From: Patescibacteria group bacterium
Lineage (GTDB): Bacteria; Patescibacteriota; JABMPQ01; JAQVVF01
Direction of reading: 5' to 3'
NCBI GenBank assembly: GCA_041662665.1
Contig: JBAZSC010000001.1
Span: 129,511-193,510, forward strand
DNA length: 64,000 bases
The notes under the pieces were generated by a model that was given only the letters and a program-made list of their open reading frames with translations, had not been told where the DNA came from and did not search any database. The translations under genes were made by a program, and so were the position numbers. Numbering within the stretch: position 1 is the stretch's first letter; every line of letters starts with the position of its first letter. Below are positions 5,852 to 50,741 of the stretch, in pieces.

Positions 5852-5869
5852 ATGCACTTTTATCCTAAT

Positions 5870-5895
5870 AGAGCAGTTTATGCTCTTTTTTTATT
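5870..5895 (+). terminator. rho-independent terminator AGAGCAgtttaTGCTCT + T7 (cassette C)
   Basis: Third copy of the terminator module. Confidence 0.6.
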
Positions 5896-5944
5896 TTTAA
5901 AAATTTATTATAATAAAATTAATTTAAAAAATAAGGAGGGAAAA

Positions 5945-9221: not shown

Positions 9222-10376
9222 ATGCCAGACGTATTTAAAGAAGTGAGCCATCAAGGCTATGGATCAAGAGTCATGGGATCATTTGGTGGAATTTTAATCG
9301 GAATTATTTTATTCTTTGCCTCATTTATTGTCCTTTATTGGAATGAAGGAAGGGTAGATATTTCTCAAATTGCCAAAAAATCAGTTGAAGTCCAATCTAG
9401 CAAAGTTGATGCAAGTTTAGATCAAAAATTAATTTCAGTTACTGGTCCAATTACTTCTTCAGAAAAATTAAGCGACAAATTATTTTTAAATGAATCAGAT
9501 TACATTGCAATTTATCGAAAATCTGAAATGTATGCGTGGACCGAAAAAACAGATACAGACACAACAACCCAAACAGGCGGATCACAGACAACTGAAACAA
9601 CTTATACCTATGACACTGCTTGGACTTCAAGTCCAGAAAAATCTTCTAGCTTTAAACATCCAGAAGGCCATCAAAATCCAAACCAATCAATAACAAGTGA
9701 AACTTTCAAAGTTAATAATTCTAATTTAGAAGAATATAAATTAGACATGGCAAATTTAAAACTTGATACAAGTTTATTAGTTAGCGCCAAAAAATTGCAA
9801 TTAGATTCAGAAAATACAACTTTAACTGAAGCAAACAAAATAGTTGAAAATTATTATGTTTATCAGGGAGCTGGAAATATTTCTAATCCTCAAGTTGGCG
9901 ATCAAAAAATCAGCTATTATGTTTTACCGCAAAAAGAAATAATTACAGTATTTGGAAAATTAGACAGCGGAAAAATTACAACTTTCACTGATGAAAAAGA
10001 TAACACTTTATTCCGCATCTTTTTAGGCGATAGAGCAACTGCAATTTCCACAATGAAAACAGAATATACAGTCATGACTTGGATTTTAAGACTAGTTGGC
10101 TTCTTGATGATGTGGATCGGTCTATCAGCAATGTTTGGTCCAATCAGTGTTGTCTTAGATTTCTTGCCATTCTTAGGATCTGCTAGTCGAGGAATTATTG
10201 GCTTTATTACATTTATCGTTGCCTTAGCTTTATCAGTTTTGACAATTTTAATTTCCATGATCATTCATAATATTGTCGCCTTAATTATAATTTTAGCAAT
10301 TATCGTAATTTCTGCTATTATCATTACTGCAATATTTATGAAAAAGAAAAAAGGTGCAAAACCAGCAAGCGCATAA
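9222..10376 (+). CDS. hypothetical membrane protein (N-terminal TM, extracellular domain, C-terminal TM cluster)
   Basis: 384 aa with hydrophobic segments at both ends. No recognised catalytic motif. Confidence 0.5.
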   Translation: MPDVFKEVSHQGYGSRVMGSFGGILIGIILFFASFIVLYWNEGRVDISQIAKKSVEVQSSKVDASLDQKLISVTGPITSSEKLSDKLFLNESDYIAIYRKSEMYAWTEKTDTDTTTQTGGSQTTETTYTYDTAWTSSPEKSSSFKHPEGHQNPNQSITSETFKVNNSNLEEYKLDMANLKLDTSLLVSAKKLQLDSENTTLTEANKIVENYYVYQGAGNISNPQVGDQKISYYVLPQKEIITVFGKLDSGKITTFTDEKDNTLFRIFLGDRATAISTMKTEYTVMTWILRLVGFLMMWIGLSAMFGPISVVLDFLPFLGSASRGIIGFITFIVALALSVLTILISMIIHNIVALIIILAIIVISAIIITAIFMKKKKGAKPASA

Positions 10377-10800: not shown

Positions 10801-13410
10801 TTATTTTTTTTGTCTCAAATCAATCACATCAGCTCTATCATTAACATCTTTTGCAGGATTTGGTTTAACAACATTTTGTTCTTTTTTGACAGTTTCTTTA
10901 ACCTTTTTATGAATCTCTTTTTTCAATCCAGAAAATATAAAAATATTAATAATCACAATACTAAACATTACAAGATATGGCACAGCTTCAGTTGAAATCA
11001 ACCTCTTGCCAAAAATCATGCTTGCTGCTTTTATTTTTTCATGTGATTTATTAAAATTATCATTTAATCTTTGCCAAAGACTATTTGCTTTTGGCATCAC
11101 TTCAATTTCTTTTGTTCTAGCGCTTTCATTACCACTTAAATCAACAGCCGAAATTGATACAAAATATTTATAATTATTTTCCAAATTTTCTAATATATAA
11201 ACATTTTTTTCAGGCTTTATTTCAATTGCATTATAAAAACTTTTTTCTTGTTTGTAATATAATTTATAAAAAGCTAAATCTTTTTCGCTATTTTTTGTCC
11301 AGCTTATTTCAATTTTTGCATCGCTAGATAAAATAATAGGTTCGCTTGGAATTTTTGGCGGAATTGTATCAATTGTATTTGTTGAAACTGCATTAGAAAT
11401 TAATGACGGATTTTTTTCTTCATCAACTGCTTTTATTGCAAAATAATATTTAGTTCCAGGAGTTAAGGATTTTAATTGTATTTCTTGCAATGATGGAGGA
11501 ATTAAGGGTTCAGGATATAATTTGTATTGTGTTGCAGAATAAAAACTATCTTCATCAATTAAATTTTCAGAATATCTAATATCATAATAATTTGCCAAAC
11601 CTTGATCATAATCATCGCCAGAAGCAGTCCATTCTAGATTGATTGTTGTATCAGTTGGATTCAAAGCTTTCAAATCTTTTATTGTATTAGGAAATGAATA
11701 ATCATTTGGTGTTGCCACAACTTGCGGTTCTAAATTTTCTTCATCAACATCATCATTGATCAGAGCATCCCAAGTCAATGGCAAAATAGTTATATAATAT
11801 TCTTCATTATTTTCTAAATTTGGAATCAGCATTTCTGTTTTTCCAAAAACGCTCAAAAATCTTTGCTCTCCGCCTTGTTTTTTGAATAAAACTTTATAGC
11901 CTTTAAAATCTTTATTAATCGGCGCTTCCCAAGATAAATTTATTTCTGAATCTTTTGGCTCAACATTAATATTATAAACTGAATCAACTTCTAATCGTTT
12001 AATATTTTTTAGCGGCGTAAAATTTCCTTGATCTTCATTTCCTAATCTCCAAATTGCAACTCCGGCAATTCCCAATTTTTTAATCACATTTATTTTTTCA
12101 GTAATGCTTCTTTCATTTTCAAAATAAACAGTATGCGGATTGTCTTTGTCATCTGTGTAATAAAACCAAGGGCATTTTGCATCATCATCCCATTCTATTT
12201 CAATATTATTTTCATCTAAAATATTTTTTACTCCATCATAAACCAAGCCTCTATTTTCGCACATTCCTTCAGTGCACCAGTCATAAGCATAAAAAGGCAA
12301 ACCAGCAATTATCTTTGTAGAATCAACTTTGCTTTGCGCATAAGTCAAAGCCCTAACCATCCATTTGATCGGCGCAATAGGTCCAGGTTGAGTATTCGCT
12401 CTGGCATGATCATAAGTCATAATCCTAATTTGATCAGCATTTTTGCCTAATTCTTCAAAGTCATAGGCTTGCGTCCAAGATTCATCATCAGATTGTTTTG
12501 CTTGCAAAGTTACTGATAAAATTTTGTTAATTTGATGCAATTCTTTTGCCAAGACTTTAATATATTGGCTAAAATCTTCTCTTGCTTTGTTATCTAAATT
12601 TTCATAATCAATATCAATGCCATCGTAATTATTTTCTTTAACTTCCGAAATTATCATCTCAATATTCTTTTTTCTTTTTCGCCAATCCATTACAACATTT
12701 GTACCTTTGGAATTATCATCAAAATTATTCGTAATTGTTGGAATATTTTTTTTGCCTGAATCATTTAATTTATTTATCAAATCATCATCCAAAACATCGC
12801 CATGTTTTTTTATCGTTCCATCTGGTTCAAGAGAATAAATAAAAGGCGATAGAGAAGTGAAGACTTCAAAATTATTATTAACTGTATTTTTTTGATCTGG
12901 CACATCAATTAATGGCATCCAGCCAATGACTTCAAATCCACTGTTTTCAGAACTATTTGGCGCAATTCCAATTTCTTTTGTTGCCTTGCTTTTATTTCCT
13001 GACCGATCAATTGCTTCTATGCTTACAAAATAAAATGCATTTGTTAAATCCTTAATTTGATAAGATGTTACATCAGGATTTACAGCAACAGGATCGCTGT
13101 CTTGTTTTTCTACTGAAGTTCTTAGATTAATTAAATATTTATCAACCTCATCTTCTTTGACATTTTGTTTCCAATTTAATTCCAAAGTATTGTCCAAAGC
13201 TTTGACACTAAATCCTTGTGGAATATGGGGCGGGTTCGTGTCATTCTTATTTGCAGAACCTAAATCAGCAGTATTAGAGTTTTTATTCGTCGTATTAGAG
13301 CTAGTATTAGAGAAAGCATTAGTCTGCAACACGAAAAAGACCTGAAATATCATTAGGACTAATACAAAACTGCAGATTATTTTTTGGTTTTTGAATTTTT
13401 TCATCTGCAA
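10801..13410 (-). CDS. secreted, membrane-anchored glycoside hydrolase family 18 (chitinase-like) protein with fibronectin-III-like repeats
   Basis: N-terminal signal peptide. YDGIDIDYENL matches the GH18 catalytic DGxDxDxE motif. Several FN3-like segments and a C-terminal TM helix (LVMFSIVIINIFIFSGL). Confidence 0.7.
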   Translation of the reverse strand: MQMKKFKNQKIICSFVLVLMIFQVFFVLQTNAFSNTSSNTTNKNSNTADLGSANKNDTNPPHIPQGFSVKALDNTLELNWKQNVKEDEVDKYLINLRTSVEKQDSDPVAVNPDVTSYQIKDLTNAFYFVSIEAIDRSGNKSKATKEIGIAPNSSENSGFEVIGWMPLIDVPDQKNTVNNNFEVFTSLSPFIYSLEPDGTIKKHGDVLDDDLINKLNDSGKKNIPTITNNFDDNSKGTNVVMDWRKRKKNIEMIISEVKENNYDGIDIDYENLDNKAREDFSQYIKVLAKELHQINKILSVTLQAKQSDDESWTQAYDFEELGKNADQIRIMTYDHARANTQPGPIAPIKWMVRALTYAQSKVDSTKIIAGLPFYAYDWCTEGMCENRGLVYDGVKNILDENNIEIEWDDDAKCPWFYYTDDKDNPHTVYFENERSITEKINVIKKLGIAGVAIWRLGNEDQGNFTPLKNIKRLEVDSVYNINVEPKDSEINLSWEAPINKDFKGYKVLFKKQGGEQRFLSVFGKTEMLIPNLENNEEYYITILPLTWDALINDDVDEENLEPQVVATPNDYSFPNTIKDLKALNPTDTTINLEWTASGDDYDQGLANYYDIRYSENLIDEDSFYSATQYKLYPEPLIPPSLQEIQLKSLTPGTKYYFAIKAVDEEKNPSLISNAVSTNTIDTIPPKIPSEPIILSSDAKIEISWTKNSEKDLAFYKLYYKQEKSFYNAIEIKPEKNVYILENLENNYKYFVSISAVDLSGNESARTKEIEVMPKANSLWQRLNDNFNKSHEKIKAASMIFGKRLISTEAVPYLVMFSIVIINIFIFSGLKKEIHKKVKETVKKEQNVVKPNPAKDVNDRADVIDLRQKK

Positions 13411-13588: not shown

Positions 13589-14347
13589 ATGAAAAACTTT
13601 AAACCATTAGGGGAAATTTTTAGTTCAGCTTGGAAACAATTTGAAAAAAATTGGGGTAATTATGTTGGTCTATCAGCAATTTTCACTGTTGCTCAATTTG
13701 TGATTATTTTTGTCGTTGTTTTTTCAATGGTCTTCTTGCAACTAGCCGGTATTTTCGGAAGTATTCCATTAATGATCAATCAAGATTCAACAACAGCTGG
13801 TTTTGGCGGAATGATAATGATCATAACAGTTATCACAACATCTCTGCTCTTATTCATTGCTGTCTTCGGCCTAAGTTTTCTTATCAATGCTTGGTTGATG
13901 AGAACAATGATTACCCTTATTGCTAAAAAACAATCTGGCAGTTTAGATTTTGTTCAATTCATTAAATCTTGCTGGCCAAAAGTTTGGCGAGTATTTTTTG
14001 CTATGATTTTAATGATGCTAATTATTTTTGTAGGTTTCATTTGTTTTATTATTCCAGGTATTATTTTTGGTCTCTGGCTTTCTCAAGTCTTATTCCTAAT
14101 AATTTTAGAAGATTTATCAATTAGCGATGCCTTCAAAAAATCTAAAGAATTAGTTTCAGGCCACATAGGTACAGTCTTTCTCTATAATTTCGTTTTTATG
14201 TTAGTAATGGAAGTTGGGCTAATGGCAATTAATATAATCCCATTTTTAGGAACTTTAGCCATGCCTGTATTGAGCATTGTCATGATTCCTTTAATGACAA
14301 TTTTTCAATATCATATATTTTTAGAACTTAAAAAACTTAATGGTTAA
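13589..14347 (+). CDS. hypothetical polytopic membrane protein
   Basis: The track ORF starts at 13517 over promoter-like sequence, so the internal Met at 13589 (MKNFKPLGEIF) is more plausible. Six or more hydrophobic helices. Confidence 0.45.
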   Translation: MKNFKPLGEIFSSAWKQFEKNWGNYVGLSAIFTVAQFVIIFVVVFSMVFLQLAGIFGSIPLMINQDSTTAGFGGMIMIITVITTSLLLFIAVFGLSFLINAWLMRTMITLIAKKQSGSLDFVQFIKSCWPKVWRVFFAMILMMLIIFVGFICFIIPGIIFGLWLSQVLFLIILEDLSISDAFKKSKELVSGHIGTVFLYNFVFMLVMEVGLMAINIIPFLGTLAMPVLSIVMIPLMTIFQYHIFLELKKLNG

Positions 14348-14458
14348 ATTGCTGAACTGTTAAATTGTTAACTGCCAAATTGTTTAACCATTAAGCAATT
14401 TAGCAATCGAACAATTTAGCAATTAAGCAATTTAGCAATAATTAATTTAATTTAAAAT

Positions 14459-17400
14459 ATGCCTCAAACGCAAAAAACTGAAGTAAAAACAAGAAGTCGA
14501 ACCAGTCAAATTACTGGTGTCGTTGCAGCTGTTGTTGCAGCAATTGGTATCGGCGCCCTTATCTATTTTGCCGTTGTCAACTACAACACAAAAATAACAA
14601 CACAAACAGAATTTTCTGTTTTTGAACAAGAGTATCAGCCAAATGTTGAGCCAGTTTCTGCAATTGTAACTGATCAAAATCAACTCGCTGATGCACAAAC
14701 AAAATTGGATGCAATTAAAGGTGTTGTTACTCCTGTAATTGAACAACAAGCTCAAGATACCGGCACAACTCCTGGACAGATAATTGATGTTACCCAAAAA
14801 GATGCAATGATTGAATCTCTTTCTGACCAAGTTGTTTCCGAAACCGCAACAGAAATTAAAGATGAAGTTAACATTTTAATCGGCAAAGACGAGCTCGATT
14901 TTTCTCAAGCACAGGCTGCTGAAGATTATACGATGATAAAAGTATTTGGTGATCTGACTAACGCAACAGGCGGTACAGATACAACTAGTTCAGGTGTAAC
15001 CTTAACAGATGCTCAAAAGAATACACTTGATACAATTGCTGAAAATACTTCAACTGATACAACTCAAAAAATTACGGAAGGTTCTACAAAAATTGCTCGA
15101 GAAACTAGTGGCAATGAAAGTGAAATCAATAGCGAACTTACTGCTGAAGTTATCAGTATTTTTGGACAGGCAACTGATTTCACGCTTACTGGAACAAAAG
15201 ATGAATTTGCTGCAGCAGAAGCTCCAGCACCAAACGAAGTAACTCCAGATATCTGGTTTTGTAATTCTGAAAATAATTGTCAGCAATCAGAATATGCTAC
15301 TTTAGATAAATGTAAACTAGAAAAAGGCATAGACAAATGTTTTGAAGGCAACACTTGCGGTGATTGCAAACAAGCAGCTCCAGTAGATGAAAGAGTCCAT
15401 ACTTGCTCTCCTGATAATATTTGTATGCCATCAACTTTGTATCCTACTTTAGCGGATTGTGTGACAGCTATAGGTGCTGACAAATGTTTTGAAGGCAATA
15501 CTTGTGTTTGTCAAGCTACACCAGCAAATGAACCAGCTGCCAGTCAATTTCAATTATATTTTTGTTTAAATGGAAATTGGACATCTGATAGTTTTGGAGG
15601 TAACTCTATAGATGAAGCAAAACAAGTTTGTAGTACTGCCATAGGCAACCAATGCTTTATTGATTCAAGTGATCCAGGTCATGATGCCGCAAAAGAAGCT
15701 TGCAAGCCAGCAGTTGATGAGCCAGTAATCGATGAATCAGCATTTTGTGTTGATAATGCCTGTGTACCTGGCCCAATTAATGTAAAGTGTACTCCTCCAA
15801 ATTGCCCTGAACGTTTTGATAATATGGAAGCATGCAATCTTTCAGATTGCGAGCCAAAGCAAGAATATGTATACTGTGCAGAAACTGGTTGTTTAGCTGA
15901 AAGTTTTAGCAGTCAAGGCGAATGTGAAGCACAGCATATCGGCGCTAATTGCAAATTATCAACACCTGAATCTATACAAGAGTGTAGTGATGCTTGCATC
16001 AAGATGGAGCAAGATCAACAATATTACACTTGCGATAGAGACGTAAATCAATGCAAGGCAGTTCAAAATCTTGATGAATGTGAAGTTAATGGCGGTACCA
16101 AATATTGCACAACGAATAATGATTGTTGCAAAGCAAATGTAATTCCAGTTCAAAAACAATATTACTATTGCGATAAAAATGATAAAACTAATGGTTGTAA
16201 ACAAACAGAACTACTTGACTCCTTAGAAGCCTGTCAAAATGCGCATCCAGATGGTGGCTGTATAGCTGATGTTAAAAAAGCTATTTGCGATGAAACATGC
16301 AAGCCCGATCCAGTTTTAGATGTAATTGAAGACGAATGTCATAATAATTTGCCAAATGATCCTAAATGCTCATTGCAAGTAATTGACAAAATAGAAAATA
16401 AACCAACAGGTGAAATTACAGAATACAAATTATCAGTCACATCTTCAATTATTTATCGAGGTTTAGGCAGAGTTATTATGAAATTCTGGGCCAATCCAAA
16501 CGATCCAGTTAACTTTGAATATACAAAGCAAAAATTAGCTAATGATTTTAAAGACAATAAATTAAGAGTCAGATTTGGCGATAAAAAAGAAGATTTGTCT
16601 GATGTCCTAAAAGTTTACAAAGATCCAAGAAATCCAAACAAATATTATGCTATTGCTTATAAATTAAATATTGATAATCTTTGGCAAAATGATGATGGAA
16701 AATATAATAGCAAAAAATATTTTTATCAAGTCAATGCCGACAATAAAAAATCAGATTTCTTTGATTTCCAATCTTTGCAAAGAGGCGGAGAAGTTCTTTA
16801 TGTCAAAAACAGATTATATAATGGACATTATGATTTAAAAAAATATGGAACTATTGAATTAAATCTAAAAAATAGTGGACAACTTGCCGGCAATATAAAA
16901 ACCTTGAACAACAAATTGAAAAATTTCGAAAATGGCGGTGTTAATTTCTGGACGCAAACTTCAAAAGTTTCTCCTTATGGCTTGAGAACTGCAATGGCTG
17001 GAGATCAAAGATTCAAACAATATTTTAGCATTTTGAAAAATCTGCAAAAGAAAAATGATATTACAAAAGCTGTTCAAGTTCTTTACAATTATCATGATCG
17101 TCTAAAACCTGAAGATATTTATCGTCGTTATGATCAAGGCGGTGTTAATTATTGGGTTAAGCAAGTTAACAATGATAAATTGTCGTTCAGCAGTATGGTT
17201 ACTTATGTCATGCTAGGTACAGATGAGCCAAAAACAAATCTTACACAATTCTGGGGCACAGGAAAATTAGCTACTAGAAAAGCAGAAATCGAATTAGGCT
17301 TTGTTAAATCTTTAAGCCGAGGCATTACTCAAATGTCAGATATTGATCGATTCATGAATTCTTCCAAATATATTTCTTCTGCAAGCATTAGAGCAGATTT

Positions 17401-17653
17401 AAGAAATTCAGATGAATTCAGAAGATTGTTGAATGATGTTTATAAACGTGGTGAAGCATCTGACGCCATATCATTGTTATATATTGCTGATTTAGGAAGA
17501 CCAGTTGATCCAGATGGCCAGCCATTCTATGTCAACAAATTTAATCAACTTAGAAAAGATGGTCTAAACGCTACAGATGCTTTGAATGAAATTGATAAAG
17601 AATTAACGAGTAGTAAAGAATACAAAGATGCAATTGCAAGACCAATAAAGTAA
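14459..17653 (+). CDS. giant membrane-anchored Cys-rich secreted protein with a C-terminal DUF4214-like domain
   Basis: 1064 aa. N-terminal TM. Repeated Cys-rich modules (CFEGNTCGDCKQA / CFEGNTCVCQATPA and others). The C-terminal LLYIADLGRPVDPDGQPFYVNKFNQLRKDGLNATDALNEIDKELTSSKEYKDAI fits the DUF4214 consensus (LY..LGR..D..G..YW..L..G......F..S.EY). Paralogous to the next gene. Confidence 0.6.
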   Translation: MPQTQKTEVKTRSRTSQITGVVAAVVAAIGIGALIYFAVVNYNTKITTQTEFSVFEQEYQPNVEPVSAIVTDQNQLADAQTKLDAIKGVVTPVIEQQAQDTGTTPGQIIDVTQKDAMIESLSDQVVSETATEIKDEVNILIGKDELDFSQAQAAEDYTMIKVFGDLTNATGGTDTTSSGVTLTDAQKNTLDTIAENTSTDTTQKITEGSTKIARETSGNESEINSELTAEVISIFGQATDFTLTGTKDEFAAAEAPAPNEVTPDIWFCNSENNCQQSEYATLDKCKLEKGIDKCFEGNTCGDCKQAAPVDERVHTCSPDNICMPSTLYPTLADCVTAIGADKCFEGNTCVCQATPANEPAASQFQLYFCLNGNWTSDSFGGNSIDEAKQVCSTAIGNQCFIDSSDPGHDAAKEACKPAVDEPVIDESAFCVDNACVPGPINVKCTPPNCPERFDNMEACNLSDCEPKQEYVYCAETGCLAESFSSQGECEAQHIGANCKLSTPESIQECSDACIKMEQDQQYYTCDRDVNQCKAVQNLDECEVNGGTKYCTTNNDCCKANVIPVQKQYYYCDKNDKTNGCKQTELLDSLEACQNAHPDGGCIADVKKAICDETCKPDPVLDVIEDECHNNLPNDPKCSLQVIDKIENKPTGEITEYKLSVTSSIIYRGLGRVIMKFWANPNDPVNFEYTKQKLANDFKDNKLRVRFGDKKEDLSDVLKVYKDPRNPNKYYAIAYKLNIDNLWQNDDGKYNSKKYFYQVNADNKKSDFFDFQSLQRGGEVLYVKNRLYNGHYDLKKYGTIELNLKNSGQLAGNIKTLNNKLKNFENGGVNFWTQTSKVSPYGLRTAMAGDQRFKQYFSILKNLQKKNDITKAVQVLYNYHDRLKPEDIYRRYDQGGVNYWVKQVNNDKLSFSSMVTYVMLGTDEPKTNLTQFWGTGKLATRKAEIELGFVKSLSRGITQMSDIDRFMNSSKYISSASIRADLRNSDEFRRLLNDVYKRGEASDAISLLYIADLGRPVDPDGQPFYVNKFNQLRKDGLNATDALNEIDKELTSSKEYKDAIARPIK

Positions 17654-17663
17654 ATTATAAAAA

Positions 17664-17690
17664 AGGCGAGATCGAAAAAGATCTCGCCTT
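17664..17690. terminator. hairpin AAGGCGAGATC-gaaaaa-GATCTCGCCTT between the two paralogs
   Basis: Perfect 11-bp stem. Weak T tract. Confidence 0.45.
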
Positions 17691-17704
17691 AATATTCCAA
17701 TTAT

Positions 17705-20700
17705 ATGGAGGCAAAAAACAAATTTTATAGATTAATTGGGATTATAATTATTTTTTTAAGCATTGGAGCAATCGCTTATCTTTCATTTTCTAATTATTTT
17801 GGAAAAACTAAAATTAATAATTTTGGTGAAGATTATCCAGTTGATGAAATAAAAGATGCCAATGAAGAAAAACTCGAAGAACTAGTAGTATCTGCCCAAA
17901 AAACATTAGACCAGCAGATTAAAAATCAAGCGCCAGATACTTCAAAATCAGATCAAGAGATGATCCGAGAGCAAATTATCAATAAAATTTATAGTGAGAA
18001 TGTTAATGCTGAAGTTTTAGCACAAGAAAAAAATATTGCTCAATCCATATCTAATCAGTCAATTGCTCAGCTTAATAGCGAGATTGCTAGTGGAGGAAAC
18101 GATAATAATCAAAATTTAAATAGTAAAATTTTAGATTTAGCTGACAAGCTTTTTATTAAACAAAAAGCTAAAAAAACAGCTCAAGAAACTGTTAACGAGA
18201 TCAATGATGAAGTTACATCAGCAATTAATAATAGCAATTTAGATAGTCGTAAGCAAAGCAGCAGTGCAGTTAATATTATGCATGCAATAATTTTTGATGA
18301 TCCAAACCTTGCTTTTTCAAATGCCAGCAATAGCAAAGAAAAAAGAGCTTTGCAAGATATCTACAAAAATGCTTTGAATGATTCAAATAATAAAATTGAT
18401 AATAATCTATTAACTTTGAATAACCAGAATAACAAAGATGAATTTAATTATCAATTTAAAGAAAGCTTGAAACAAGTAGTTACAGTCGTCAAGCAAGATA
18501 CAAAAGTTAGGATGTCCAGTGCGCTTAGTGATAATGCTAAAAAAACAATTGCTGATCAAGTAGTTGCTGATTCCAATCCGAATAATTCTGCTGATCAAAT
18601 AATTGATTGCGCAAACAATGCAAATATTGAACAATGTTTAACAAAAGGCAATCAAAAACCAATTGCCGAACAAGTTAAACAAGTAGAACAAGTGACCCAA
18701 ACCATCAATAATACTTATGATAATCTTGATAATGAAAACGGTAAGATAATGAATCAAGAAGATAAACAAGAAATTATTGATACAACAATCAAAAAAACAA
18801 AAGAAGAAATAAAAAATCAACCGCTTGTTGAATATATTTGTACTTGCAAAGCGCCAGAAAATGTTTGCCAGTCAACTGGAAAAAATTATACTGACAAAGA
18901 TCAATGCGCAAATGAACAAGGAGGAGAATGTTTCGAGAGCTTAGATGCCTGTTATGGTTATTGCAAGCAACCAGCAACAGTAGAAGAAGAAACTGTTGCT
19001 ACTTGCACAAAACTAATCATATGTCACATTCCATCAGACAATCCAGAAAATCAGCAAGAGATTTGTGTTGCAGAATCAGCAGCCAAAGCGCATTATGCTC
19101 ATGGTGATTATGAAGGCTATTGTAAGACAGCCCCAACTAACGAGCCAGTCAATGAAAATACGAATACATCAAATGAAACTAATGAAAATATTAATACCAA
19201 CACAAATGAAATAGCTAATGAAAATGCAAATCAGCCTTTGAATGAGAATACGAATATTAATGAATCAACAAATCAAGTAGCTAATGAAAATACGAATATC
19301 AACATTAACACAAATCAAAACGTTAATGTCAACGAAAATACAAACGTTGTTACTAATGCAAACCAGAATACTAATCAATCGACAGGAGGAGGAATAGATG
19401 TTCCTAATGTCCCTCCGACAGACAATCCAGACCCAAATCAAAAACCACCTCTTGATATCCAGCCAGTAGAAAATGGAAATTTTTTTGCTTATTGTGATCG
19501 TGAAGTTGGACAATGCAGGACAGCAGAAAATATGTTTAAGGATGAAAATTCTTGTCTTTCTTCATTACAAAGTCAATTTCCTAACAAAAATATTACTGCC
19601 TGCATTCCTTTCGATTCAACCACACAATCTTATCCATGTTTAGAAAGTTGTACTAAAACAACTCCAGAAAATCAACAAATAAATGATTTAGAGAAAAGCT
19701 TGCATGATTATGTTGTCGAAAATCCAGTTTTTCTAAAAGAAGAAATTAATAAAATAAAAGAAGACATCACTGAAAAGACAATCAGAGTCTTTAATGAAAA
19801 GGTAAAACCTACCCCAATAGATCAGCAAAAACAAGATCAGATAGTCAACGATCTTAAAAATGAAATAAACCAACAAATTCAAGCCTTGCCAGAAAATGCA
19901 AGACCAAGCTACGAAGAAGTAATTGACAAATTAGCTCATAATGAATCTGATGAAATTTCACTTAAGGCTTGGATAGTTTACAAGGGGTTAGGTAGAGTAA
20001 TCTTGAAATTTGAAGAAAATGAATTTGATGTTTATAAAAAACTATATAGTGAGAATGTAATCAAATCAGCTTTTGACGCCGGAAATCTAAAATTTAAATT
20101 TGGTGAAAAAGCAGATGATCTAAAGTATGACTTCAAAATTTATAAGGACCAGAAAAGCGATCGTTTTTATGCTGTTGTCTATAATTTAGGTGAGGATAAT
20201 TTGGTGAATAAAGATAATGATCAATATGGTTCAAAAGAATATTATTTTCAAGTTGCTACAGATGAAAAGTTTTCTGAAATTTTCACTTTTAAATCTTTAA
20301 ATAGGGTTGGCGAGGCTTTGTATGATCAAAATAAATTATTTGGACAGAACCATGATTTAAAACGCTACGGCACTATTGCTTATGATTTCAACAAAGGCAG
20401 TCAAGAAAATAATTATATTAAAAAATCTGGCTTATCGTCCTACATTGATTCAAATGCAAGTCCTTATGGTCTAAAAACTGCCATGGCCAAAAGCCCAAAT
20501 TTCATAAACGCGTTAAAAAAAATCAATAACATTGATTCAATCAAAAAAGTCTATACAGGGTATGTTGATCTATTAATTCCTCAAGATATTTATTACCAAT
20601 ATAGCGAACCAACTGTAAAATATTGGGCAAACACTATTGCAAAAAAAGATCTCAATTTTAATTCTGTGGTACAAAATTTATTTTTCACTACCAAAGAGCA

Positions 20701-21112
20701 AGATTTAAATTTAATTGATTTTTGGAATAAACCGCAATATGCAACGATTGAGGACAGCTATCTAAAAACATTGAGGCGTGGTATCATATCAAATGATGAA
20801 ATTAATCAATTCCTAAATCAAGCAGAATATTCTTCTAAAGCATTAATCAGAGAAAAATTAAGATCTCAAGAAGAATATAGTCTTATTAAAAAACAGATTA
20901 TTAAACAAAAAGACAGTTCAATCTTAGCTTTTATTTTCTCCGCAGTTCTCGGCCGAGAAATTACTCCAAGAGAAAATAGCCATTATCTTGCCCAATATCA
21001 AAAGCTCGAAAAAGAAAAAGGCATGAATAAAGAAAAAGCTGCTGATAGAATAGAATCTGAATTAATTAATAGTTCTGAATATAAAAAAGAATTACAACAA
21101 ACAATAAAATAA
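17705..21112 (+). CDS. giant membrane-anchored Cys-rich secreted protein with an Asn-rich low-complexity tract and a C-terminal DUF4214-like domain (paralog)
   Basis: 1135 aa. N-terminal TM. Cys-rich centre. A NENTNT...NQNVNVNENTN low-complexity tract at about 19140-19390. The C-terminal region is homologous to the previous gene (YKGLGRVILKF.../YRGLGRVIMKF...) and ends in a DUF4214-like segment AVLGREITPRENSHYLAQYQKLEKEKGMNKEKAADRIESELINSSEYKKEL. Confidence 0.6.
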   Translation: MEAKNKFYRLIGIIIIFLSIGAIAYLSFSNYFGKTKINNFGEDYPVDEIKDANEEKLEELVVSAQKTLDQQIKNQAPDTSKSDQEMIREQIINKIYSENVNAEVLAQEKNIAQSISNQSIAQLNSEIASGGNDNNQNLNSKILDLADKLFIKQKAKKTAQETVNEINDEVTSAINNSNLDSRKQSSSAVNIMHAIIFDDPNLAFSNASNSKEKRALQDIYKNALNDSNNKIDNNLLTLNNQNNKDEFNYQFKESLKQVVTVVKQDTKVRMSSALSDNAKKTIADQVVADSNPNNSADQIIDCANNANIEQCLTKGNQKPIAEQVKQVEQVTQTINNTYDNLDNENGKIMNQEDKQEIIDTTIKKTKEEIKNQPLVEYICTCKAPENVCQSTGKNYTDKDQCANEQGGECFESLDACYGYCKQPATVEEETVATCTKLIICHIPSDNPENQQEICVAESAAKAHYAHGDYEGYCKTAPTNEPVNENTNTSNETNENINTNTNEIANENANQPLNENTNINESTNQVANENTNININTNQNVNVNENTNVVTNANQNTNQSTGGGIDVPNVPPTDNPDPNQKPPLDIQPVENGNFFAYCDREVGQCRTAENMFKDENSCLSSLQSQFPNKNITACIPFDSTTQSYPCLESCTKTTPENQQINDLEKSLHDYVVENPVFLKEEINKIKEDITEKTIRVFNEKVKPTPIDQQKQDQIVNDLKNEINQQIQALPENARPSYEEVIDKLAHNESDEISLKAWIVYKGLGRVILKFEENEFDVYKKLYSENVIKSAFDAGNLKFKFGEKADDLKYDFKIYKDQKSDRFYAVVYNLGEDNLVNKDNDQYGSKEYYFQVATDEKFSEIFTFKSLNRVGEALYDQNKLFGQNHDLKRYGTIAYDFNKGSQENNYIKKSGLSSYIDSNASPYGLKTAMAKSPNFINALKKINNIDSIKKVYTGYVDLLIPQDIYYQYSEPTVKYWANTIAKKDLNFNSVVQNLFFTTKEQDLNLIDFWNKPQYATIEDSYLKTLRRGIISNDEINQFLNQAEYSSKALIREKLRSQEEYSLIKKQIIKQKDSSILAFIFSAVLGREITPRENSHYLAQYQKLEKEKGMNKEKAADRIESELINSSEYKKELQQTIK

Positions 21113-21119
21113 TCTTTTT

Positions 21120-21701
21120 ATGCCAACAAAAGTTTCAACAAAAATTAATGTTTCTGTTTTAACAGGCGTCATTCTAGCAGGAGCGATGATGTTCGCTCTT
21201 GCCGGATTTGGCTTTTTGAAAACAGAAATAGAGCCAACCATCAAAAATAATTTGCCTGGCTGGGCATGGAGTTTTCAGACTCCAGACAATTATAGTTTTG
21301 ATAACAGCAAGATTAAGATCGAAAATTCAGTTGTCGAATTACAACAAGGAATAGAGCAAGGAGAAATAAAAAATAATTATCCTTACTCTTACGGCTGTTT
21401 GCCAAATCCTGCTGTTGCATTTATTACTGATTCTGATGGCGAAATTTCATATCAAATCAGCAAAGACAATTTGAATTGGTATTACTGGAATTCTGGATCT
21501 TGGAAAAATGCGACTAATATTGACCAAGCAAATACTGCCACAGAAGTTAATCAGCATATTGTCGATTTTTATCCATTATCTTTGAATCAATTTTACTTTA
21601 ATGCTATCTTGAACAAAAAAGATAGTAGATTAAGAGGAATTCAAATTACTTGCGATGAATCAACACTGAAAAAAGTTGAACTTTATCCAAAAAGTCTCTA
21701 G
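21120..21701 (+). CDS. hypothetical membrane-anchored/secreted protein
   Basis: 193 aa with an N-terminal hydrophobic helix. Followed by a hairpin + T-run terminator at about 21715-21741. Confidence 0.45.
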   Translation: MPTKVSTKINVSVLTGVILAGAMMFALAGFGFLKTEIEPTIKNNLPGWAWSFQTPDNYSFDNSKIKIENSVVELQQGIEQGEIKNNYPYSYGCLPNPAVAFITDSDGEISYQISKDNLNWYYWNSGSWKNATNIDQANTATEVNQHIVDFYPLSLNQFYFNAILNKKDSRLRGIQITCDESTLKKVELYPKSL

Positions 21702-21860
21702 AATATTTTAAAAGCCAGCAAAATAAAATGCTGGTTTTTTTAATTTAGTAATGATAAAATAATTTGACAAGTTAAATAAGTTAGACTAGTTAGACTTGTT
21801 AGATTAGTTCGTTAACTTATTTAACCAGTCTAACAAATCTAACCAGTCTAACAAATATTC

Positions 21861-22973
21861 ATGTATCTTTCTTCTCTTCAACTTAAAAATTTTCGCAATT
21901 ACAAAGATTTTGAATCAAGTTTCACCAATGGCTTGATTATTTTGACTGGCCAGAATGCTTCCGGAAAAACTAATTTATTAGAAGCAGTTGAATTATTGTC
22001 ATTATCAAAATCTTTTCGTGCCAGGTCAGAATACGATTTAATTTTATTTGGTATGGATTTCGCCAAAATTTTAGGAACATCACAGAAAAATAATCACCAA
22101 ACAAAATTAGATATTACTATTGATTCATTAACTTCCAAAAATCAAAAAGTAATTAAAATTGATGGTTTAAAAAGTCGCGCTTTTGATTTGATCGGCGAAT
22201 TAGTTACTGTACTTTTTTCTCCAGAAGATTTGAATTTAGTTAATTCAGCGCCACAACTTCGCCGACGTTATTTAGATGTTGTCATTTGCCAGATTAATAA
22301 AGACTATTGCCGAAATTTGTCCGAATACAAAAAAGTTTTAATTAATCGAAATCAGCTTTTAGCTAATATCAAAGATGGTTATGCAAAAAAAGAGGAATTA
22401 AGTTTTTGGAATGAAAAATTAATTGATTTAGGAACAAGGATTATTATCGAACGCCAAAAAACTTTACAATTTTTTAATACTAAATTGTCAGAAATTTACA
22501 ATGATATCTGCGATACTAAAGATCAAAAACTTCGTATAATTTATCTACCAAATTTGCCTTTGTTAAAAGATTCAGACATCAAAAAATTATTTGAACAAGA
22601 ATTAAATAATAAATACGAAAGAGAAATTTATAAAACTTACACTTTAGTTGGTCCGCATCGAGATAATTTTGTTTTTGAACTTAATAAAAAGAGATTAGCC
22701 ATCTTTGGTTCGCGAGGTGAATATCGCAGCGCAATATTAGCTTTAAAATCTGCAGAATTAGATTTTATTGAACAAAGCTTGGGAGAACGACCGATTCTTT
22801 TGCTTGATGATGTTTTTTCTGAATTAGATGAAAAAAGACGCAATCACATGTTTGATTTAGTCAGACGCCAGCAAACTTTTATCACTTCTGCTGATTTTGT
22901 CGGACTTGAAGTTGGTTTTGTTAGAGATGCGCAAGTACTTCAAATCAAAAATGGAGAAATAACGAATAAATAA
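21861..22973 (+). CDS. recF: DNA replication and repair protein RecF
   Basis: LQLKNFRNYKDFESSF...GQNASGKTNLLEAVELL (Walker A). SMC-like ABC ATPase, 370 aa. Confidence 0.85.
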   Translation: MYLSSLQLKNFRNYKDFESSFTNGLIILTGQNASGKTNLLEAVELLSLSKSFRARSEYDLILFGMDFAKILGTSQKNNHQTKLDITIDSLTSKNQKVIKIDGLKSRAFDLIGELVTVLFSPEDLNLVNSAPQLRRRYLDVVICQINKDYCRNLSEYKKVLINRNQLLANIKDGYAKKEELSFWNEKLIDLGTRIIIERQKTLQFFNTKLSEIYNDICDTKDQKLRIIYLPNLPLLKDSDIKKLFEQELNNKYEREIYKTYTLVGPHRDNFVFELNKKRLAIFGSRGEYRSAILALKSAELDFIEQSLGERPILLLDDVFSELDEKRRNHMFDLVRRQQTFITSADFVGLEVGFVRDAQVLQIKNGEITNK

Positions 22974-22974
22974 C

Positions 22975-23075
22975 AAAATCCAAATTCCAAACAAATCACA
23001 AATAACAAACGACAAATCGTCGATTTTGTAATTTGGATTTTGTAATTTGTTTGGAATTTGGTATTTGTAATTTAT
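22975..23075. repeat. intergenic composite palindrome, 'caaatcccaaat' family (copy 1)
   Basis: ccaaattccaaacaaatcacaaataacaaacgacaaatcgtcgattttgtaatttggattttgtaatttgtttggaatttgg is a long imperfect inverted repeat. The same sequence family recurs at 26252-26360, 37489-37612, 48279-48330/48700-48762 and 50612-50715. Confidence 0.7.
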
Positions 23076-23081
23076 TTCGAG

Positions 23082-23381
23082 ATGTCTATTTTTTCTCTCA
23101 AAGATTTACTGCCAGTTGCAATTAACAATGCTGGCATTAAAACACAGCTTGAAGCTTCTCAAGTTTGTTTGACTTGTGAAAAATTAATTAAAGAATTAAA
23201 TCACAAAGCTTTTAAGCTCGCAAAACCAATTAGTCTAAAAAATAAAACGCTAACCATTCAAGTTCCATCTTCATCTCATGCTCAAGAATTATTAATGCAC
23301 CAACATATCATCAAGCAAAAAATCAACCAGCATTTTAGAAAACAGCTGGTTGATCGGATAAGTTATAAAATAGAATTTTAG
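23082..23381 (+). CDS. DUF721/DciA-like protein (recF-adjacent small protein)
   Basis: The internal Met (MSIFSLKDLLP) is the likelier start. The position after recF and the pattern TLTIQVPSSSHAQELLMHQHIIKQKIN are typical of DUF721. Confidence 0.5.
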   Translation: MSIFSLKDLLPVAINNAGIKTQLEASQVCLTCEKLIKELNHKAFKLAKPISLKNKTLTIQVPSSSHAQELLMHQHIIKQKINQHFRKQLVDRISYKIEF

Positions 23382-24293: not shown

Positions 24294-26252
24294 ATGAACA
24301 TATCAACTTTAGCAAAAAAATTAGGTTACCATAGCCAAGAAATGCGCAAGATGATTGAGGCAATGGGATATCGACTTCGACCAACAGCGTCGAAGATTTC
24401 TGATAAAAAAGCAAAAGAAATTACCAAAAAAGTAGAAAAGCTAGAAAAGGAAAAAACTCTAGAAATGAAAGAAGAACAGAAAAAAGTTGAAAAAGCCAAA
24501 GAACCAAAAAAACTTTATGTCGCCCAAACTATTACAGTTAAGGATTTCGCACAAGTTTTAGAAATGGAAGTTACTGATGTCATTAGACAATTGATCCAGG
24601 AAGGCATCATGGCAACAATCAATGAAGAAATTGATTTTGAAACAGCGAGTATTATTGCTGAAGAATTAGGCCATAAAATTGAATTAAAAAAAGAAGAAAA
24701 AGATTTGATTAAGGAAAAAGGAGTTCGCAAACAGATTCTCGAAGATTTATCTCATGAAGAAGAAAAGAATTTAAAGCCTCGTCCTCCAGTTGTTGTTGTC
24801 ATGGGTCACGTTGATCATGGCAAGACAAAATTATTGGATGTCATTCGCGAAACAAATATTATTGCTACTGAAGCAGGAGGTATTACTCAAAAAATCGGTG
24901 CTTATCAAGCAAAATGCAATGGCAAAGTCATTACGTTTTTAGATACTCCTGGTCACGAAGCTTTCAAAGCAATGCGCGAAAGAGGTGCAAAAGTTACTGA
25001 TATGGCAATTCTTGTTGTTGCAGCTGATGACGGTGTTATGCCTCAAACAGAAGAAGCAATTGCGCATGCCAAAAATGCTGGCGTGCCAATTATTGTTGCT
25101 ATCAACAAAATAGATAAAGAAGGTGCTGATCCAGAAAAAGTAAAAAGACAGCTCGCTGATTTAGGTTTGCAACCAGAAGATTGGGGAGGCGATACAATTA
25201 TGGTTGAAATATCTGCCAAAATGAATAAAAATATCGATAAGCTTTTAGAAATGGTTTTATTGCAAGCGGAAATTTTAGAATTAAAAGCCAACCAAGAATC
25301 AAAAGCCATAGGCACAATCATTGAAGCAAACAAAGATCCCAAAAAAGGTCCAGTTGCTACAGTTTTGATTCAAAATGGAACTTTGAATTTGGGCGATTAT
25401 GTTACTTGTGGCAGTATCTATGGAAAAATCAAGGCAATGGAAAATTTCTTAGGCAAAAGAATAAATCATGCTAAGCCATCAACTCCAGTTCAAATTTTAG
25501 GTCTTACAGCAGTTCCAGATTCTGGCGATATTTTGCAAGAAGAAAAATCCAAAGAAGCAGCTCGAGAAAAAATTGCCAAAATCGCAAAAGCAGAAATCAA
25601 GATTAAACGCAATTTGACTCCAGAAGAAGAAAGAAAAATTAAAAAATTAAATATAATTTTAATTGCTGATTTTTATGGATCTCTTGAAGCAATTATTGAT
25701 GAGCTAAACAAAATCAATTCCAAGCAAGTTATGCCTCAAATCATTGATTATTCTGCTGGCAAGATTACTGAATCAAATGTCATGAATGCTCAATCTTCAA
25801 ATGCAATTATTTTTGGTTTTAATTCTAAGCCAACAACTGTTGCATCTCGTCTTGCCGAAGATAAGCATGTCAAAATATTTTCCTACGATATTATTTACGA
25901 ATTAATTGACGAAATCAAAAAACAATTGAGTTCTTTGATCGAGCCAGAAGTCATTAAGACAAAATTAGGCAAACTTAATGTTTTAGCAATTTTCAGATCT
26001 GAAAAGAAAAGAAAAATTATTGGCGGCAGAGTCTTGTCTGGCTTCCTAGCAAAAGATTCAATTGTAAAAATAATCAGAGAAGATGTAGAAATTGGCCAAG
26101 GAAAAATTACTACTGTTCAAAAAAATATGGCTGATGTACAAAAGGTAGAAGCAGGTTCAGAATGTGGAATGTCAATTGATACGACTGTCAAAGTTAAAGA
26201 AGGTGACGTGATTGAAGCTTGGAAAGAAGAAATCAAAAAAATCACTTTATAA
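24294..26252 (+). CDS. infB: translation initiation factor IF-2
   Basis: G-domain VVVVMGHVDHGKTKLLD, DTPGHEAF and NKIDK motifs. 652 aa with a short N-terminal region. Confidence 0.9.
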   Translation: MNISTLAKKLGYHSQEMRKMIEAMGYRLRPTASKISDKKAKEITKKVEKLEKEKTLEMKEEQKKVEKAKEPKKLYVAQTITVKDFAQVLEMEVTDVIRQLIQEGIMATINEEIDFETASIIAEELGHKIELKKEEKDLIKEKGVRKQILEDLSHEEEKNLKPRPPVVVVMGHVDHGKTKLLDVIRETNIIATEAGGITQKIGAYQAKCNGKVITFLDTPGHEAFKAMRERGAKVTDMAILVVAADDGVMPQTEEAIAHAKNAGVPIIVAINKIDKEGADPEKVKRQLADLGLQPEDWGGDTIMVEISAKMNKNIDKLLEMVLLQAEILELKANQESKAIGTIIEANKDPKKGPVATVLIQNGTLNLGDYVTCGSIYGKIKAMENFLGKRINHAKPSTPVQILGLTAVPDSGDILQEEKSKEAAREKIAKIAKAEIKIKRNLTPEEERKIKKLNIILIADFYGSLEAIIDELNKINSKQVMPQIIDYSAGKITESNVMNAQSSNAIIFGFNSKPTTVASRLAEDKHVKIFSYDIIYELIDEIKKQLSSLIEPEVIKTKLGKLNVLAIFRSEKKRKIIGGRVLSGFLAKDSIVKIIREDVEIGQGKITTVQKNMADVQKVEAGSECGMSIDTTVKVKEGDVIEAWKEEIKKITL

Positions 26253-26360
26253 ATCCCAAATCCCAAAAAACAAACAAATAACAAATTACAAATCACAATC
26301 CGTCGACTTTGTAATTTGTTATTTGGGATTTGTTTGGAGTTTAGAATTTGTAATTTTACG
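26252..26360. repeat. intergenic composite palindrome, 'caaatcccaaat' family (copy 2)
   Basis: aaatcccaaatcccaaaaaacaaacaaataacaaattacaaatcacaatccgtcgactttgtaatttgttatttgggatttgtttgg, lying between infB and rbfA. Confidence 0.7.
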
Positions 26361-26363
26361 ATT

Positions 26364-26693
26364 ATGTCACATCGTTTAGAAAAACTTAACAGCCTAATTC
26401 AGCAAGAATTAGGTTTCATTATCAAAGAGGAAGTAGAGATTCCGATTGATTCTTTGATTACTGTTTCAAAAGTAGATACTTCTGTTGACATTAAACACAC
26501 AAACGTGTATATTTCTGTGATCCCAAAAAACAAAGCTGTTAGCGTTATCAAAAAGCTTAATCACAATGTTTATCATTTGCAAAAAGCTTTAAATAAAAAA
26601 TTGGTAATGCACTTTGTTCCAAAGATCCGATTTGTCTTAGACCATTCTGAAGAGCATGCTGAGAAAATCGAAAAGATTTTAGCAAAAATATAA
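26364..26693 (+). CDS. rbfA: ribosome-binding factor A
   Basis: MSHRLEKLNSLIQQELGFII... immediately downstream of infB, which is the conserved arrangement. About 110 aa. Confidence 0.7.
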   Translation: MSHRLEKLNSLIQQELGFIIKEEVEIPIDSLITVSKVDTSVDIKHTNVYISVIPKNKAVSVIKKLNHNVYHLQKALNKKLVMHFVPKIRFVLDHSEEHAEKIEKILAKI

Positions 26694-29043: not shown

Positions 29044-29157
29044 AATTTTCAATTACCAATTTCCAATTTTCAAATAATATTCAATGGACAATTTTCATTG
29101 GAAATTGATCATTGGTAATTGATTGTAAATTGATAATTGGAAATTGAAAATTATTTT

Positions 29158-35662: not shown

Positions 35663-35829
35663 TTTCTAATTTCTATTAAATTTTCAATGAATAATTTCTA
35701 AACGCAGAGCTAATTGCTCTGTTTTAAATTGTTCTTTGCGCTAAAATAAGTTAAAATAACACTAAGGTTTTAAAATTTATAATTAGAAATTTAATAAAAA
35801 TTGAAAATTGAAAATTGTAATACAAATTT

Positions 35830-37424: not shown

Positions 37425-37488
37425 GATTTTATTTTTATATATTTAAAAAGGCGAGAATCAATTCTCGTCTTTTTTAAAAAACCAAAAA

Positions 37489-37612
37489 AAATCCCAAATA
37501 CCAAATCCCAAACAAATTACAATAACCAAATTACAAAATTTTAAGAATAAGTTTTGTGATTTGTAATTTGTTAATTGTTTGGAATTTGGGATTTGTAATT
37601 TCGACGTTTAAT
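37489..37612. repeat. intergenic composite palindrome, 'caaatcccaaat' family (copy 3)
   Basis: atcccaaataccaaatcccaaacaaattacaataaccaaattacaaaatttt...gttttgtgatttgtaatttgttaattgtttggaatttgggatttgtaattt. Confidence 0.7.
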
Positions 37613-37627
37613 TGTTAAAATCATTTC

Positions 37628-46835: not shown

Positions 46836-46949
46836 TTTCCAATTAACAATTTCCAATTTTCAATAAATTACCAATTTTCAATTTACAATGAATTCTCGCA
46901 GTTTTGAAAATTGGTTATTGGAAATTTATTGTAAATTGGTCATTGAAAA

Positions 46950-47393: not shown

Positions 47394-47533
47394 TCATAAA
47401 TGATCAATTTCCAATTCTCAATTTTCAATAAGTTGCCAATGAACAATTTTCAATGGCTACTTCGTAAGTTTTGAAAATTGGTTAATTGATAATTTATTGG
47501 AAATTGTAAATTGATAATTGAAAATTAAAACTG

Positions 47534-48277: not shown

Positions 48278-48278
48278 A

Positions 48279-50603: not shown

Positions 50604-50611
50604 AAACAAAA

Positions 50612-50715: not shown

Positions 50716-50741
50716 ATTTCTATATTTAATAAAATAAAAAT

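Follow-up and report, generated by a model that had tools for sequence, protein, structure and literature searches.

Two adjacent genes of a Patescibacteria group bacterium, here called A and B, encode tandem paralogs with a common C-terminal module, predicted to consist of one Fn3-like domain and four degenerate DUF4214-like repeats. The Cys-rich middle of A is hypervariable between related genomes, and B, directly beside it, is conserved. Both genes lie in a 64-kb stretch (~31% GC) of contig JBAZSC010000001.1, which belongs to a metagenome-assembled genome (MAG) of this organism; we refer to the whole stretch as the window and give coordinates within it (Table 1). We favor, with a probability of roughly 0.55, the reading that A and B are type-II anchored modular envelope proteins, in which the DUF4214 module docks on a surface polymer and A carries a strain-variable array.

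Tandem paralogs with a common C-terminal module

The open reading frames (ORFs) of A and B are on the same strand, 51 nt apart. An earlier note on this DNA had described two adjacent paralogous genes, and the positions and lengths it gave were exact; its word "giant" was overstated, as the proteins have only ~1100 aa. The A product exactly matches a database entry annotated as a "hypothetical protein" (WC663_00805; P and L numbers below are our identifiers for proteins and loci), which comes from a 645-kb contig of a Patescibacteria group bacterium MAG. BLASTP aligned A525-1064 with B597-1135 (E = 1e-76), and this alignment includes a continuous, well-conserved block of ~385-410 aa (A658-1064/B751-1135, 36-37% identity). 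A and B are true tandem paralogs, and their homologous C-terminal region, put at ~300 aa in the earlier note, measures about 400 aa.

When modeled using AlphaFold2 (AF2), the C-terminal module was predicted to form a beta-sandwich packed on a bundle of helical repeats, with a predicted local distance difference test (pLDDT) of 89 and a predicted TM-score (pTM) of 0.86. The input for this model was a 22-sequence family alignment; an alignment of four sequences gave a pLDDT of only 47. Each of the four repeats retains the signature Y...R..D..G..(Y/F)(W/Y). In Foldseek searches with the helical part, the best PDB match was a phycobilisome linker REP domain (PF00427; 3osj; probability 1.0, target TM-score 0.51, 22% identity), but with an E value of only 0.02 and a cyanobacterial antenna context, we read this match as a superfamily-level resemblance only. 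The top match in the viral library was a phage "DUF4214 domain-containing protein" (E = 9.8e-4). The beta part matched FnIII domains with probabilities of 0.94-1.0 but E values of about 0.06 (target TM-scores of 0.47-0.65), and neither A nor B had a Pfam fn3 match. Foldseek found no solved structure that matched the entire module. Judged from sequence and model together, the C-terminal region contains DUF4214-like repeats with a predicted phycobilisome-linker-like fold.

The Pfam model for DUF4214 (PF13946) has a gathering threshold of 23.2 bits. A scored 22.8 bits at an internal repeat (residues 889-914), just under this threshold, and B had no Pfam match; this marginal match was the only one for A and B across Pfam, NCBIfam, PHROGs, PADLOC, and PDB sequences. 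Among the A orthologs, P0002 (25.7 bits) and P0005 (23.5 bits) passed and P0003 (17.9 bits) failed. All nine distant family members that we scanned scored above the threshold (23.5-46.1 bits), mostly with a full-length domain at the extreme C-terminus. The terminal 70 aa of B-type proteins (B and two orthologs) aligned over 57 columns with Pfam-positive DUF4214 repeats taken from P0011, P0029, and P0031 (hhalign probability of 96.6%, E = 6.5e-10). A DUF4214-type ending, as the earlier note had proposed, therefore holds in profile alignment and in the relatives that pass Pfam, but not in the Pfam scores of A and B themselves, and what had been described as one terminal segment is a set of four degenerate repeats after an Fn3-like domain. 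We rejected an SLH or CWB2 protein, as no such Pfam match was found in A, B, or nine family members.

At the opposite end of A and B alike, a short run of basic residues leads into a hydrophobic helix of 21-23 residues, in agreement with the N-terminal transmembrane segment predicted earlier for each protein. The best 19-residue Kyte-Doolittle windows scored 2.62 (A, residue 21) and 2.55 (B, residue 10), and A has a net charge of +3 ahead of its helix. By the positive-inside rule, the basic residues before the helix predict an N-in/C-out signal anchor. The same combination of basic residues and transmembrane helix was also present in P0005-P0038 and is conserved across the family. In the N-terminal parts of A and B, only the anchor and the juxtamembrane stretch align (hhalign probability of 46%), and homology of the two stalks is unsupported past the anchor. 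The A stalk is only 16-52% identical to those of its orthologs and had no Pfam match. We also rejected a sortase-anchored (LPXTG) adhesin: A has no LPXTG motif, and each protein terminates in a DUF4214 helix (...SKEYKDAIARPIK for A and ...SSEYKKELQQTIK for B). A similar basic and transmembrane N-terminus (MKTRSKLIIGSLIFLILIIVGALLV...) opens a 362-aa ORF elsewhere in the window (57044-58132), in which the C-terminal family module is absent; judging from this ORF, the anchor motif may be used more widely in the source organism.

Word-indexed homolog searches gave only three, one, and four matches, and it was an exhaustive profile search that revealed the family. We searched 1.84 billion representative proteins (E ≤ 1e-3) with a hidden Markov model (HMM) of an alignment of A- and B-type C-termini. 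This search yielded 43 matches, about 25 of which are proteins of 900-1300 aa with the whole module at the C-terminus. A scan of the genome collection with a narrower alignment found three loci. Every full-length member that we inspected has two constant ends, namely, the anchor and the Fn3-like/four-DUF4214 module (~370-400 aa). The family N-terminus alternates basic and hydroxyl residues (K-T-K-T-R-like; K-x-K-x-K) and continues into a transmembrane helix with an "AIGIGxxIxYFA"-type core. The middles are mutually unrelated and contain PKD domains, an LVIVD beta-propeller, LamG/GH123-N, or no family. All named sources are Patescibacteria, including one Candidatus Andersenbacteria and one assembly labeled Saccharibacteria, and the family appears to be restricted to this group.

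Family members recur side by side. The A and B pair is present in the window, L002, and L007; L004 and L005 each have two adjacent members; and P0009 and P0013 lie four locus tags apart within one MAG. The window's own MAG also encodes a third, distant paralog outside the window, P0007 (WC663_01700). In L004 (1404-7107) and L005 (885-7098), a P0007-type protein (~965 aa) is followed by a member of 936-1098 aa, and this second tandem pair is located directly upstream of dnaE-like genes; L004 and L001 belong to one assembly.

Recurrence in tandem pairs would suit a structural envelope or surface-layer (S-layer)-like lattice, in which paralogs co-assemble through their C-terminal modules and the Cys modules add covalent rigidity. 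The pTM of 0.86 describes a compact module suited to protein-protein contacts, and we infer ~4 family members in a ~650-kb genome (A, B, and P0007 directly, and a neighbor of P0007 by analogy with L004 and L005). The module also gave fold matches to domains of the S-layer protein SbsC, but these were weak (E > 0.1). Classical S-layer proteins are typically Cys-poor and have no transmembrane anchor, unlike A, whose middle is 11% Cys and which has a transmembrane helix. We consider such a lattice quite unlikely.

A variable array in A beside a conserved B

All 42 Cys of A are located within residues 268-637, in seven tandem modules. Six of these have six Cys and one has four, and a terminal Cys pair follows the last module. 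The modules conform to the pattern [YFW]-x-C-x4-9-C-x8-13-C-x5-8-C-x4-12-C-x0-3-C. An HMM of the module detected 16 modules of at least 8 bits in four A-type proteins compared with a mean of 0.02 in composition-preserving shuffles, a test with some circularity, as these sequences had also served to train the HMM. In a DNA repeat comparison, modules 1 and 2 of A matched over 65 nt (72% identity), and near-duplicate neighboring modules are found in P0002 and in P0005; recent module duplication is thus visible in all three proteins.

The isolated Cys regions of A and B matched no Pfam family and no PDB sequence at E ≤ 10, and NCBIfam gave nothing relevant. The disulfide-type Cys modules of the earlier note are present, and its CFEGNTC motif occurs twice in A; it had named EGF-like models as ones to search with, and we rejected an EGF-like or other known Cys repeat since no curated model matched (Pfam and PDB). 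EGF-like and other eukaryote-type disulfide repeats are likewise extracellular tandem modules of ~40 aa with six Cys, an extracellular location being predicted for A. Unlike the EGF consensus, the A module has a spacing of 0-3 residues between its last two Cys and carries an aromatic residue ahead of the first. By these searches, the six-Cys module is unclassified and absent from current domain libraries (Pfam, PDB, and NCBIfam).

We recovered three syntenic loci (L001, L002, and L007), with the gene order TMEM43-like, GH18+Fn3 (opposite strand), a protein with multiple transmembrane segments (multi-TM), A, B where present, p193, recF, dciA, and infB. Neighboring proteins of the window and L002 are 75-95% identical. 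In A, identity is 68% over the first 50 residues and 76-88% in the C-terminal module, compared with 16-40% over residues ~100-600. Module number also varies, with 42 Cys in A and 54 in P0002. At the DNA level, blastn against L002 detected no similarity over the hypervariable segment of A (Table 1), while the rest of the locus is ~80% identical. Against L001, the gap extends from about 14804 to 16441, and the flanks of the segment are about 70-82% identical.

The hypervariable segment has a GC content of 36-39% compared with about 30%, and a GC content at third codon positions (GC3) of 0.19 compared with 0.21 for the rest of the gene. Since the GC3 of the segment is native, its raised GC content reflects amino acid content, not foreign DNA, and we rejected a foreign origin. 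With part of the window ORFs scanned for a reverse transcriptase, a diversity-generating retroelement (DGR) target was rejected as well: the 64-kb window contains no template/variable repeat pair (~100 nt or more, with adenine-specific mismatches), and the variable part of A is central with a conserved C-terminus, where DGR targets usually vary. The only repeats touching A within the window were module 1 versus module 2 and the A-versus-B paralogy. A metagenome scan with the A-type alignment (A1) gave no matches.

B behaves differently from A. It is 84% identical to its L002 ortholog overall and 76-96% throughout, and the sole large difference is a 37-aa indel in the Asn-rich tract. The L007 ortholog is 55% identical and split by a frameshift. 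On this Logan contig (4612-7997), it consists of ORFs of 196 aa and 925 aa in different frames; the split reflects either a true frameshift (pseudogene or programmed) or a mistake in the assembly. L001 lacks B. These comparisons indicate that B is conserved where present and is probably dispensable or recently lost in some lineages. The earlier note had ascribed divergent central regions under diversifying selection to the pair; the divergence was found in A, but not in B.

B contains 19 Cys, within residues 302-649. Its six-Cys module (residues 593-652) falls within the stretch that BLAST aligned with A and has a homolog among the A modules. The separate Cys-rich block of B includes the motif C-H-I-P-x2-N-P-x-N-x3-I-C-x7-A-H-Y-A-H-G-D-Y-x-G-Y-C, which is kept in the L002 and L007 orthologs; no Pfam model matched this block. 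In B itself, the motif reads C-H-I-P-S-D-N-P-E-N-Q-Q-E-I-C-V-...-A-H-Y-A-H-G-D-Y-E-G-Y-C (residues 440-473, window 19022-19123). It presumably resembles a short Cys/His-rich motif of other secreted bacterial proteins, and metal binding by it is possible. The extra, odd Cys of B lies in the "Y-I-C-T-C" that opens the first Cys block ("Y-I-C-Y-C" in L007), suggesting that this thiol is free or forms a disulfide with another chain, such as that of A or p193.

The Asn-rich tract of B, correctly placed by the earlier note, is 39% N, 15% T, and 12% E and is encoded by imperfect 42-45-nt DNA repeats. Its length across the B orthologs is 84, 121, and about 95 aa. AT-rich genomes often contain low-complexity Asn tracts and repeat indels, and the tract in B, together with the frameshift of B in L007 and its absence from L001, could mean that A and B are nothing more than fast-evolving, low-constraint ORFs of an AT-rich reduced genome, with A varying by neutral drift and repeat slippage. 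However, within the Cys region, 81-83% of the Cys of A align to Cys in P0002 and P0005 compared with 28-29% identity at other residues (55% and 19%, respectively, in P0003), figures that should be read with the tendency of aligners to favor Cys-Cys pairing in mind. Both constant ends are conserved in distant family members, long intact ORFs are retained in several genomes, and the AF2 model is confident. We therefore regard purely neutral change as very unlikely.

Gene unit, neighborhood and repeats

The start codon of a third gene, p193, is located 7 nt past the stop codon of B, and p193 follows A, or A and B, in 4/4 syntenic genomes. p193 had no family match in Pfam, NCBIfam, PHROGs, or PADLOC, and we found no p193-like partner when we looked beside the other tandem pairs of the family. 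A, B, and p193 probably form a single expression unit, which a predicted terminator-like hairpin closes ahead of recF. The stem-loop between A and B has no downstream T-run on the + strand, and it may act as an mRNA stabilizer or a partial terminator. A, B, p193, and the multi-TM neighbor matched no PHROGs or PADLOC family, and a phage or anti-phage defense protein was accordingly rejected. Minus-strand ORFs inside A and B (14447-14830, 15959-16204, and 19265-19513) were taken as spurious by position alone. Searches of the whole window (1-64000) found no tRNA, tmRNA, or Rfam-family RNA gene.

Table 1. Features of the A and B locus and of its surroundings in the window
Feature	Position	Strand	Description
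Gene A	14459..17653	+	1064 aa; ORF; exact match to P0001
A residues 1-41	14459..14581	+	K/T/R-rich basic start, then 23-residue transmembrane helix ITGVVAAVVAAIGIGALIYFAVV
A residues 42-262	14582..15244	+	Acidic Thr/Glu/Ala-rich stalk; 0 Cys; pI 4.05
Hypervariable segment of A	14770..16163	+	~1.4 kb; blastn
A residues 263-640	15245..16378	+	Seven tandem Cys modules, ~40 aa each
A residues 658-775	16430..16783	+	Fn3/Ig-like beta-sandwich; AF2 strands at model residues 3-114, pLDDT >90
A residues 776-1064	16784..17650	+	Four degenerate DUF4214-like helical repeats; AF2 helices at model residues 118-403
Stem-loop between A and B	17663..17690	.	11-bp GC-rich stem, AAGGCGAGATC-GAAAAA-GATCTCGCCTT
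Gene B	17705..21112	+	1135 aa; paralog of A
B residues 1-375	17705..18829	+	Anchor (transmembrane ~residues 10-30), Asn/Lys/Gln-rich stalk, one Cys pair C302/C311
B residues 376-478	18830..19138	+	Cys-rich block; 11 Cys; contains conserved C-H-I-P motif
B residues 479-562	19139..19390	+	Asn-rich tract; 84 aa; NENxNxN-type low complexity
B residues 563-750	19391..19954	+	Pro-rich linker; six-Cys module; acidic helical linker
B residues 751-1135	19955..21109	+	C-terminal Fn3-like domain and four DUF4214-like repeats; family HMM (A2) E = 2e-96
p193	21120..21701	+	193 aa; basic and transmembrane N-terminus resembling A and B; two conserved Cys
Intrinsic-terminator-like hairpin	21710..21739	+	11 pairs, then T-run; between p193 and recF
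GH18/Fn3 protein	10801-13410	-	869 aa; signal peptide, GH18 (E = 5e-34), four Fn3, C-terminal transmembrane segment
LTD protein	One of 5852-8212 / 9222-10376		786 aa; three lamin-tail (LTD) domains and OB-fold/DUF5689
TMEM43-family membrane protein	The other of 5852-8212 / 9222-10376		384 aa
"CCAAAT...ACAAAT" repeats	22963-23083, 26246-26368, 37484-37613, 48276-48334, 48657-48767, 50605-50725		Dispersed, AT-rich
Periodic "CAATT/AATTG" repeats	29044-29157, 35769-35828, 46834-46963, 47399-47538, 54987-55120		Dispersed, AT-rich

Upstream of A and divergent from it is the gene for the GH18/Fn3 protein, which is syntenic in L001 and L002 (82-83% identity). By its domains, this protein is predicted to be a surface enzyme of the chitinase or endo-N-acetylglucosaminidase-like type, with glycans of the host or of the cell itself as possible substrates. 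Two further envelope-type genes (5852-8212 and 9222-10376) encode the LTD protein and the TMEM43-family protein, and the stretch upstream of recF looks like a cell-surface gene cluster.

The 111-nt spacer between the multi-TM gene and A (window 14343-14439) is full of 8/15/16-nt tandem repeats, with an AAATTG-type half followed by a CAATTT-type half, the two motifs being reverse-complementary. In L002, the multi-TM gene and A are called as overlapping, and the spacer was not seen when the sequence was read; in L001, the gene calls also overlap. In appearance, the spacer is a copy of the intergenic repeat elements of the window that was inserted at this site. There are two families of such dispersed repeats, whose copies are mostly intergenic in an overall comparison with ORF coordinates. 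They matched no Rfam family anywhere in the window and may be repetitive extragenic palindrome (REP)-like or terminator/promoter-associated elements.

Predicted envelope role and significance

If A and B are anchored envelope proteins, the transmembrane helix would tether each protein in the cytoplasmic membrane, and the acidic stalk and rigid Cys modules would span the envelope and project outward. The constant DUF4214 module would then dock noncovalently on a surface polymer, which could be the cell's own wall, a glycan, an S-layer, or the partner paralog. Each family member would carry a different extracellular "passenger" between the two constant ends. In A and B, this passenger would be an acidic stalk followed by disulfide-type six-Cys modules, to which B adds an Asn-rich, slippage-prone spacer. 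The array of A would be remodeled by tandem module duplication, loss, and rapid substitution with retention of the Cys scaffold. Such remodeling would generate strain-specific surfaces, consistent with host recognition or phage pressure; the middle of A would be the exposed, strain-specific face and B its conserved partner.

The C-terminal module is common to paralogs with unrelated passengers and is also the part most conserved between strains, which favors a shared function directed at the cell itself, such as docking. The envelope-type neighbors (LTD, TMEM43-like, and GH18+Fn3) count in support of an envelope location. A docking role also agrees with published ideas about DUF4214, which has been proposed as a likely surface-anchoring domain in segmented filamentous bacteria (SFB) (PMC12780176), and which is part of the Pseudomonas putida RTX-DUF4214 protein Psh, reported in a preprint to bind O-antigen (bioRxiv 10.64898/2026.09.02.748959).

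Binding of an O-antigen by Psh would equally suit host-binding adhesins, in which the Fn3+DUF4214 module is a distal, lectin-like tip that binds a host-bacterium glycan, the stalk and Cys modules are spacers, and the tandem paralogs broaden or tune host range. The predicted topology places the C-terminus at the far end from the anchor, other surface proteins (among them the GH18/Fn3 enzyme) are encoded at the locus, and cultivated Patescibacteria are described as obligate episymbionts (PMC11623550). However, the module is the most conserved part of the proteins and is shared by paralogs with unrelated passengers, so a self-directed function fits better than variable target recognition, and variation between strains falls in the middle of A rather than at the tip. 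We consider a glycan-binding tip possible but doubtful. An adhesin or host-interaction role, as the earlier note proposed, is plausible from the architecture and the lifestyle of the organism.

Several points weigh against anchored envelope proteins with a docking module. The long hydrophobic stretch could be a signal peptide that is removed by cleavage. If the N-terminal helix fixes the protein in the membrane, a second anchor has no obvious need, and the module could instead be a distal functional tip. The ligand of DUF4214 proposed here is a guess. The module has an isoelectric point (pI) of 9-9.5 in A and B compared with a family median of 5.9, and we rejected its basic charge as a sign of anionic-polymer binding since it is not a family trait. 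Disulfide bonds in the Cys modules are predicted from Cys count and spacing, and the total number of Cys in B is odd. Finally, the hypervariability of A is based on four genomes.

Compared with the DUF4214 (PF13946) surface proteins of SFB and with Psh, A and B have in common C-terminal helical repeats, a secreted or surface location (predicted here), and diverse passengers. They differ in that one conserved module of ~400 aa joins four highly degenerate repeats to an Fn3-like domain, in that an N-terminal transmembrane anchor takes the place of type I secretion system (T1SS)/RTX export, and in that A falls just under the Pfam cut-off, B is invisible to the Pfam HMM, and the family is apparently confined to Patescibacteria. 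SLH, CWB2 (Cwp of Clostridioides difficile), and choline-binding repeat proteins likewise combine a constant repeat dock with variable domains and occur as several, often clustered, paralogs. No sequence or fold relationship links A and B to SLH or CWB2 proteins, and A and B are also transmembrane-anchored; the likeness is one of design, not ancestry. In a Gracilibacterium, a surface protein with a PTD tripeptide repeat (9-mer nucleotide repeat) is hypervariable within one population, which was interpreted as pressure on an attachment protein (PMC6851277). That protein and A are both predicted extracellular proteins of candidate phyla radiation (CPR) bacteria with an extremely variable repeat region, but A varies in 40-aa six-Cys modules and between related genomes, and the two have no sequence relationship.

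Modular surface proteins with variable repeats are thus already familiar, and DUF4214 is a known domain. New here are the fixed module of Fn3 and four degenerate DUF4214 repeats, the combination of this module with a conserved N-terminal anchor in a rare, apparently Patescibacteria-restricted family, the unclassified six-Cys module, and the tandem arrangement of a hypervariable A beside a conserved B. A more specific proposal, which we regard as speculative and unlikely, is a Patescibacteria display system, in which the anchor and an Fn3-(DUF4214)x4 "dock" hold swappable passengers, the A array recognizes the host, and B and p193 are invariant partners. If this were true, the A array would set the host range of an episymbiont or serve as a phage decoy or variable target.

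To our knowledge, host recognition and attachment by ultra-small CPR/Patescibacteria cells are largely unknown beyond type IV pili. This locus offers a lineage-specific family of large, predicted envelope proteins with constant ends and swappable middles, and the confidently modeled Fn3 and four-DUF4214 module could provide a handle on the ligand of the widespread, uncharacterized DUF4214. If the A array is a host- or phage-facing specificity determinant, it would be a host-range marker in uncultivated lineages. Otherwise, the family would still provide useful annotation for "hypothetical" proteins, adding a domain architecture and a Cys-repeat family that are both new.

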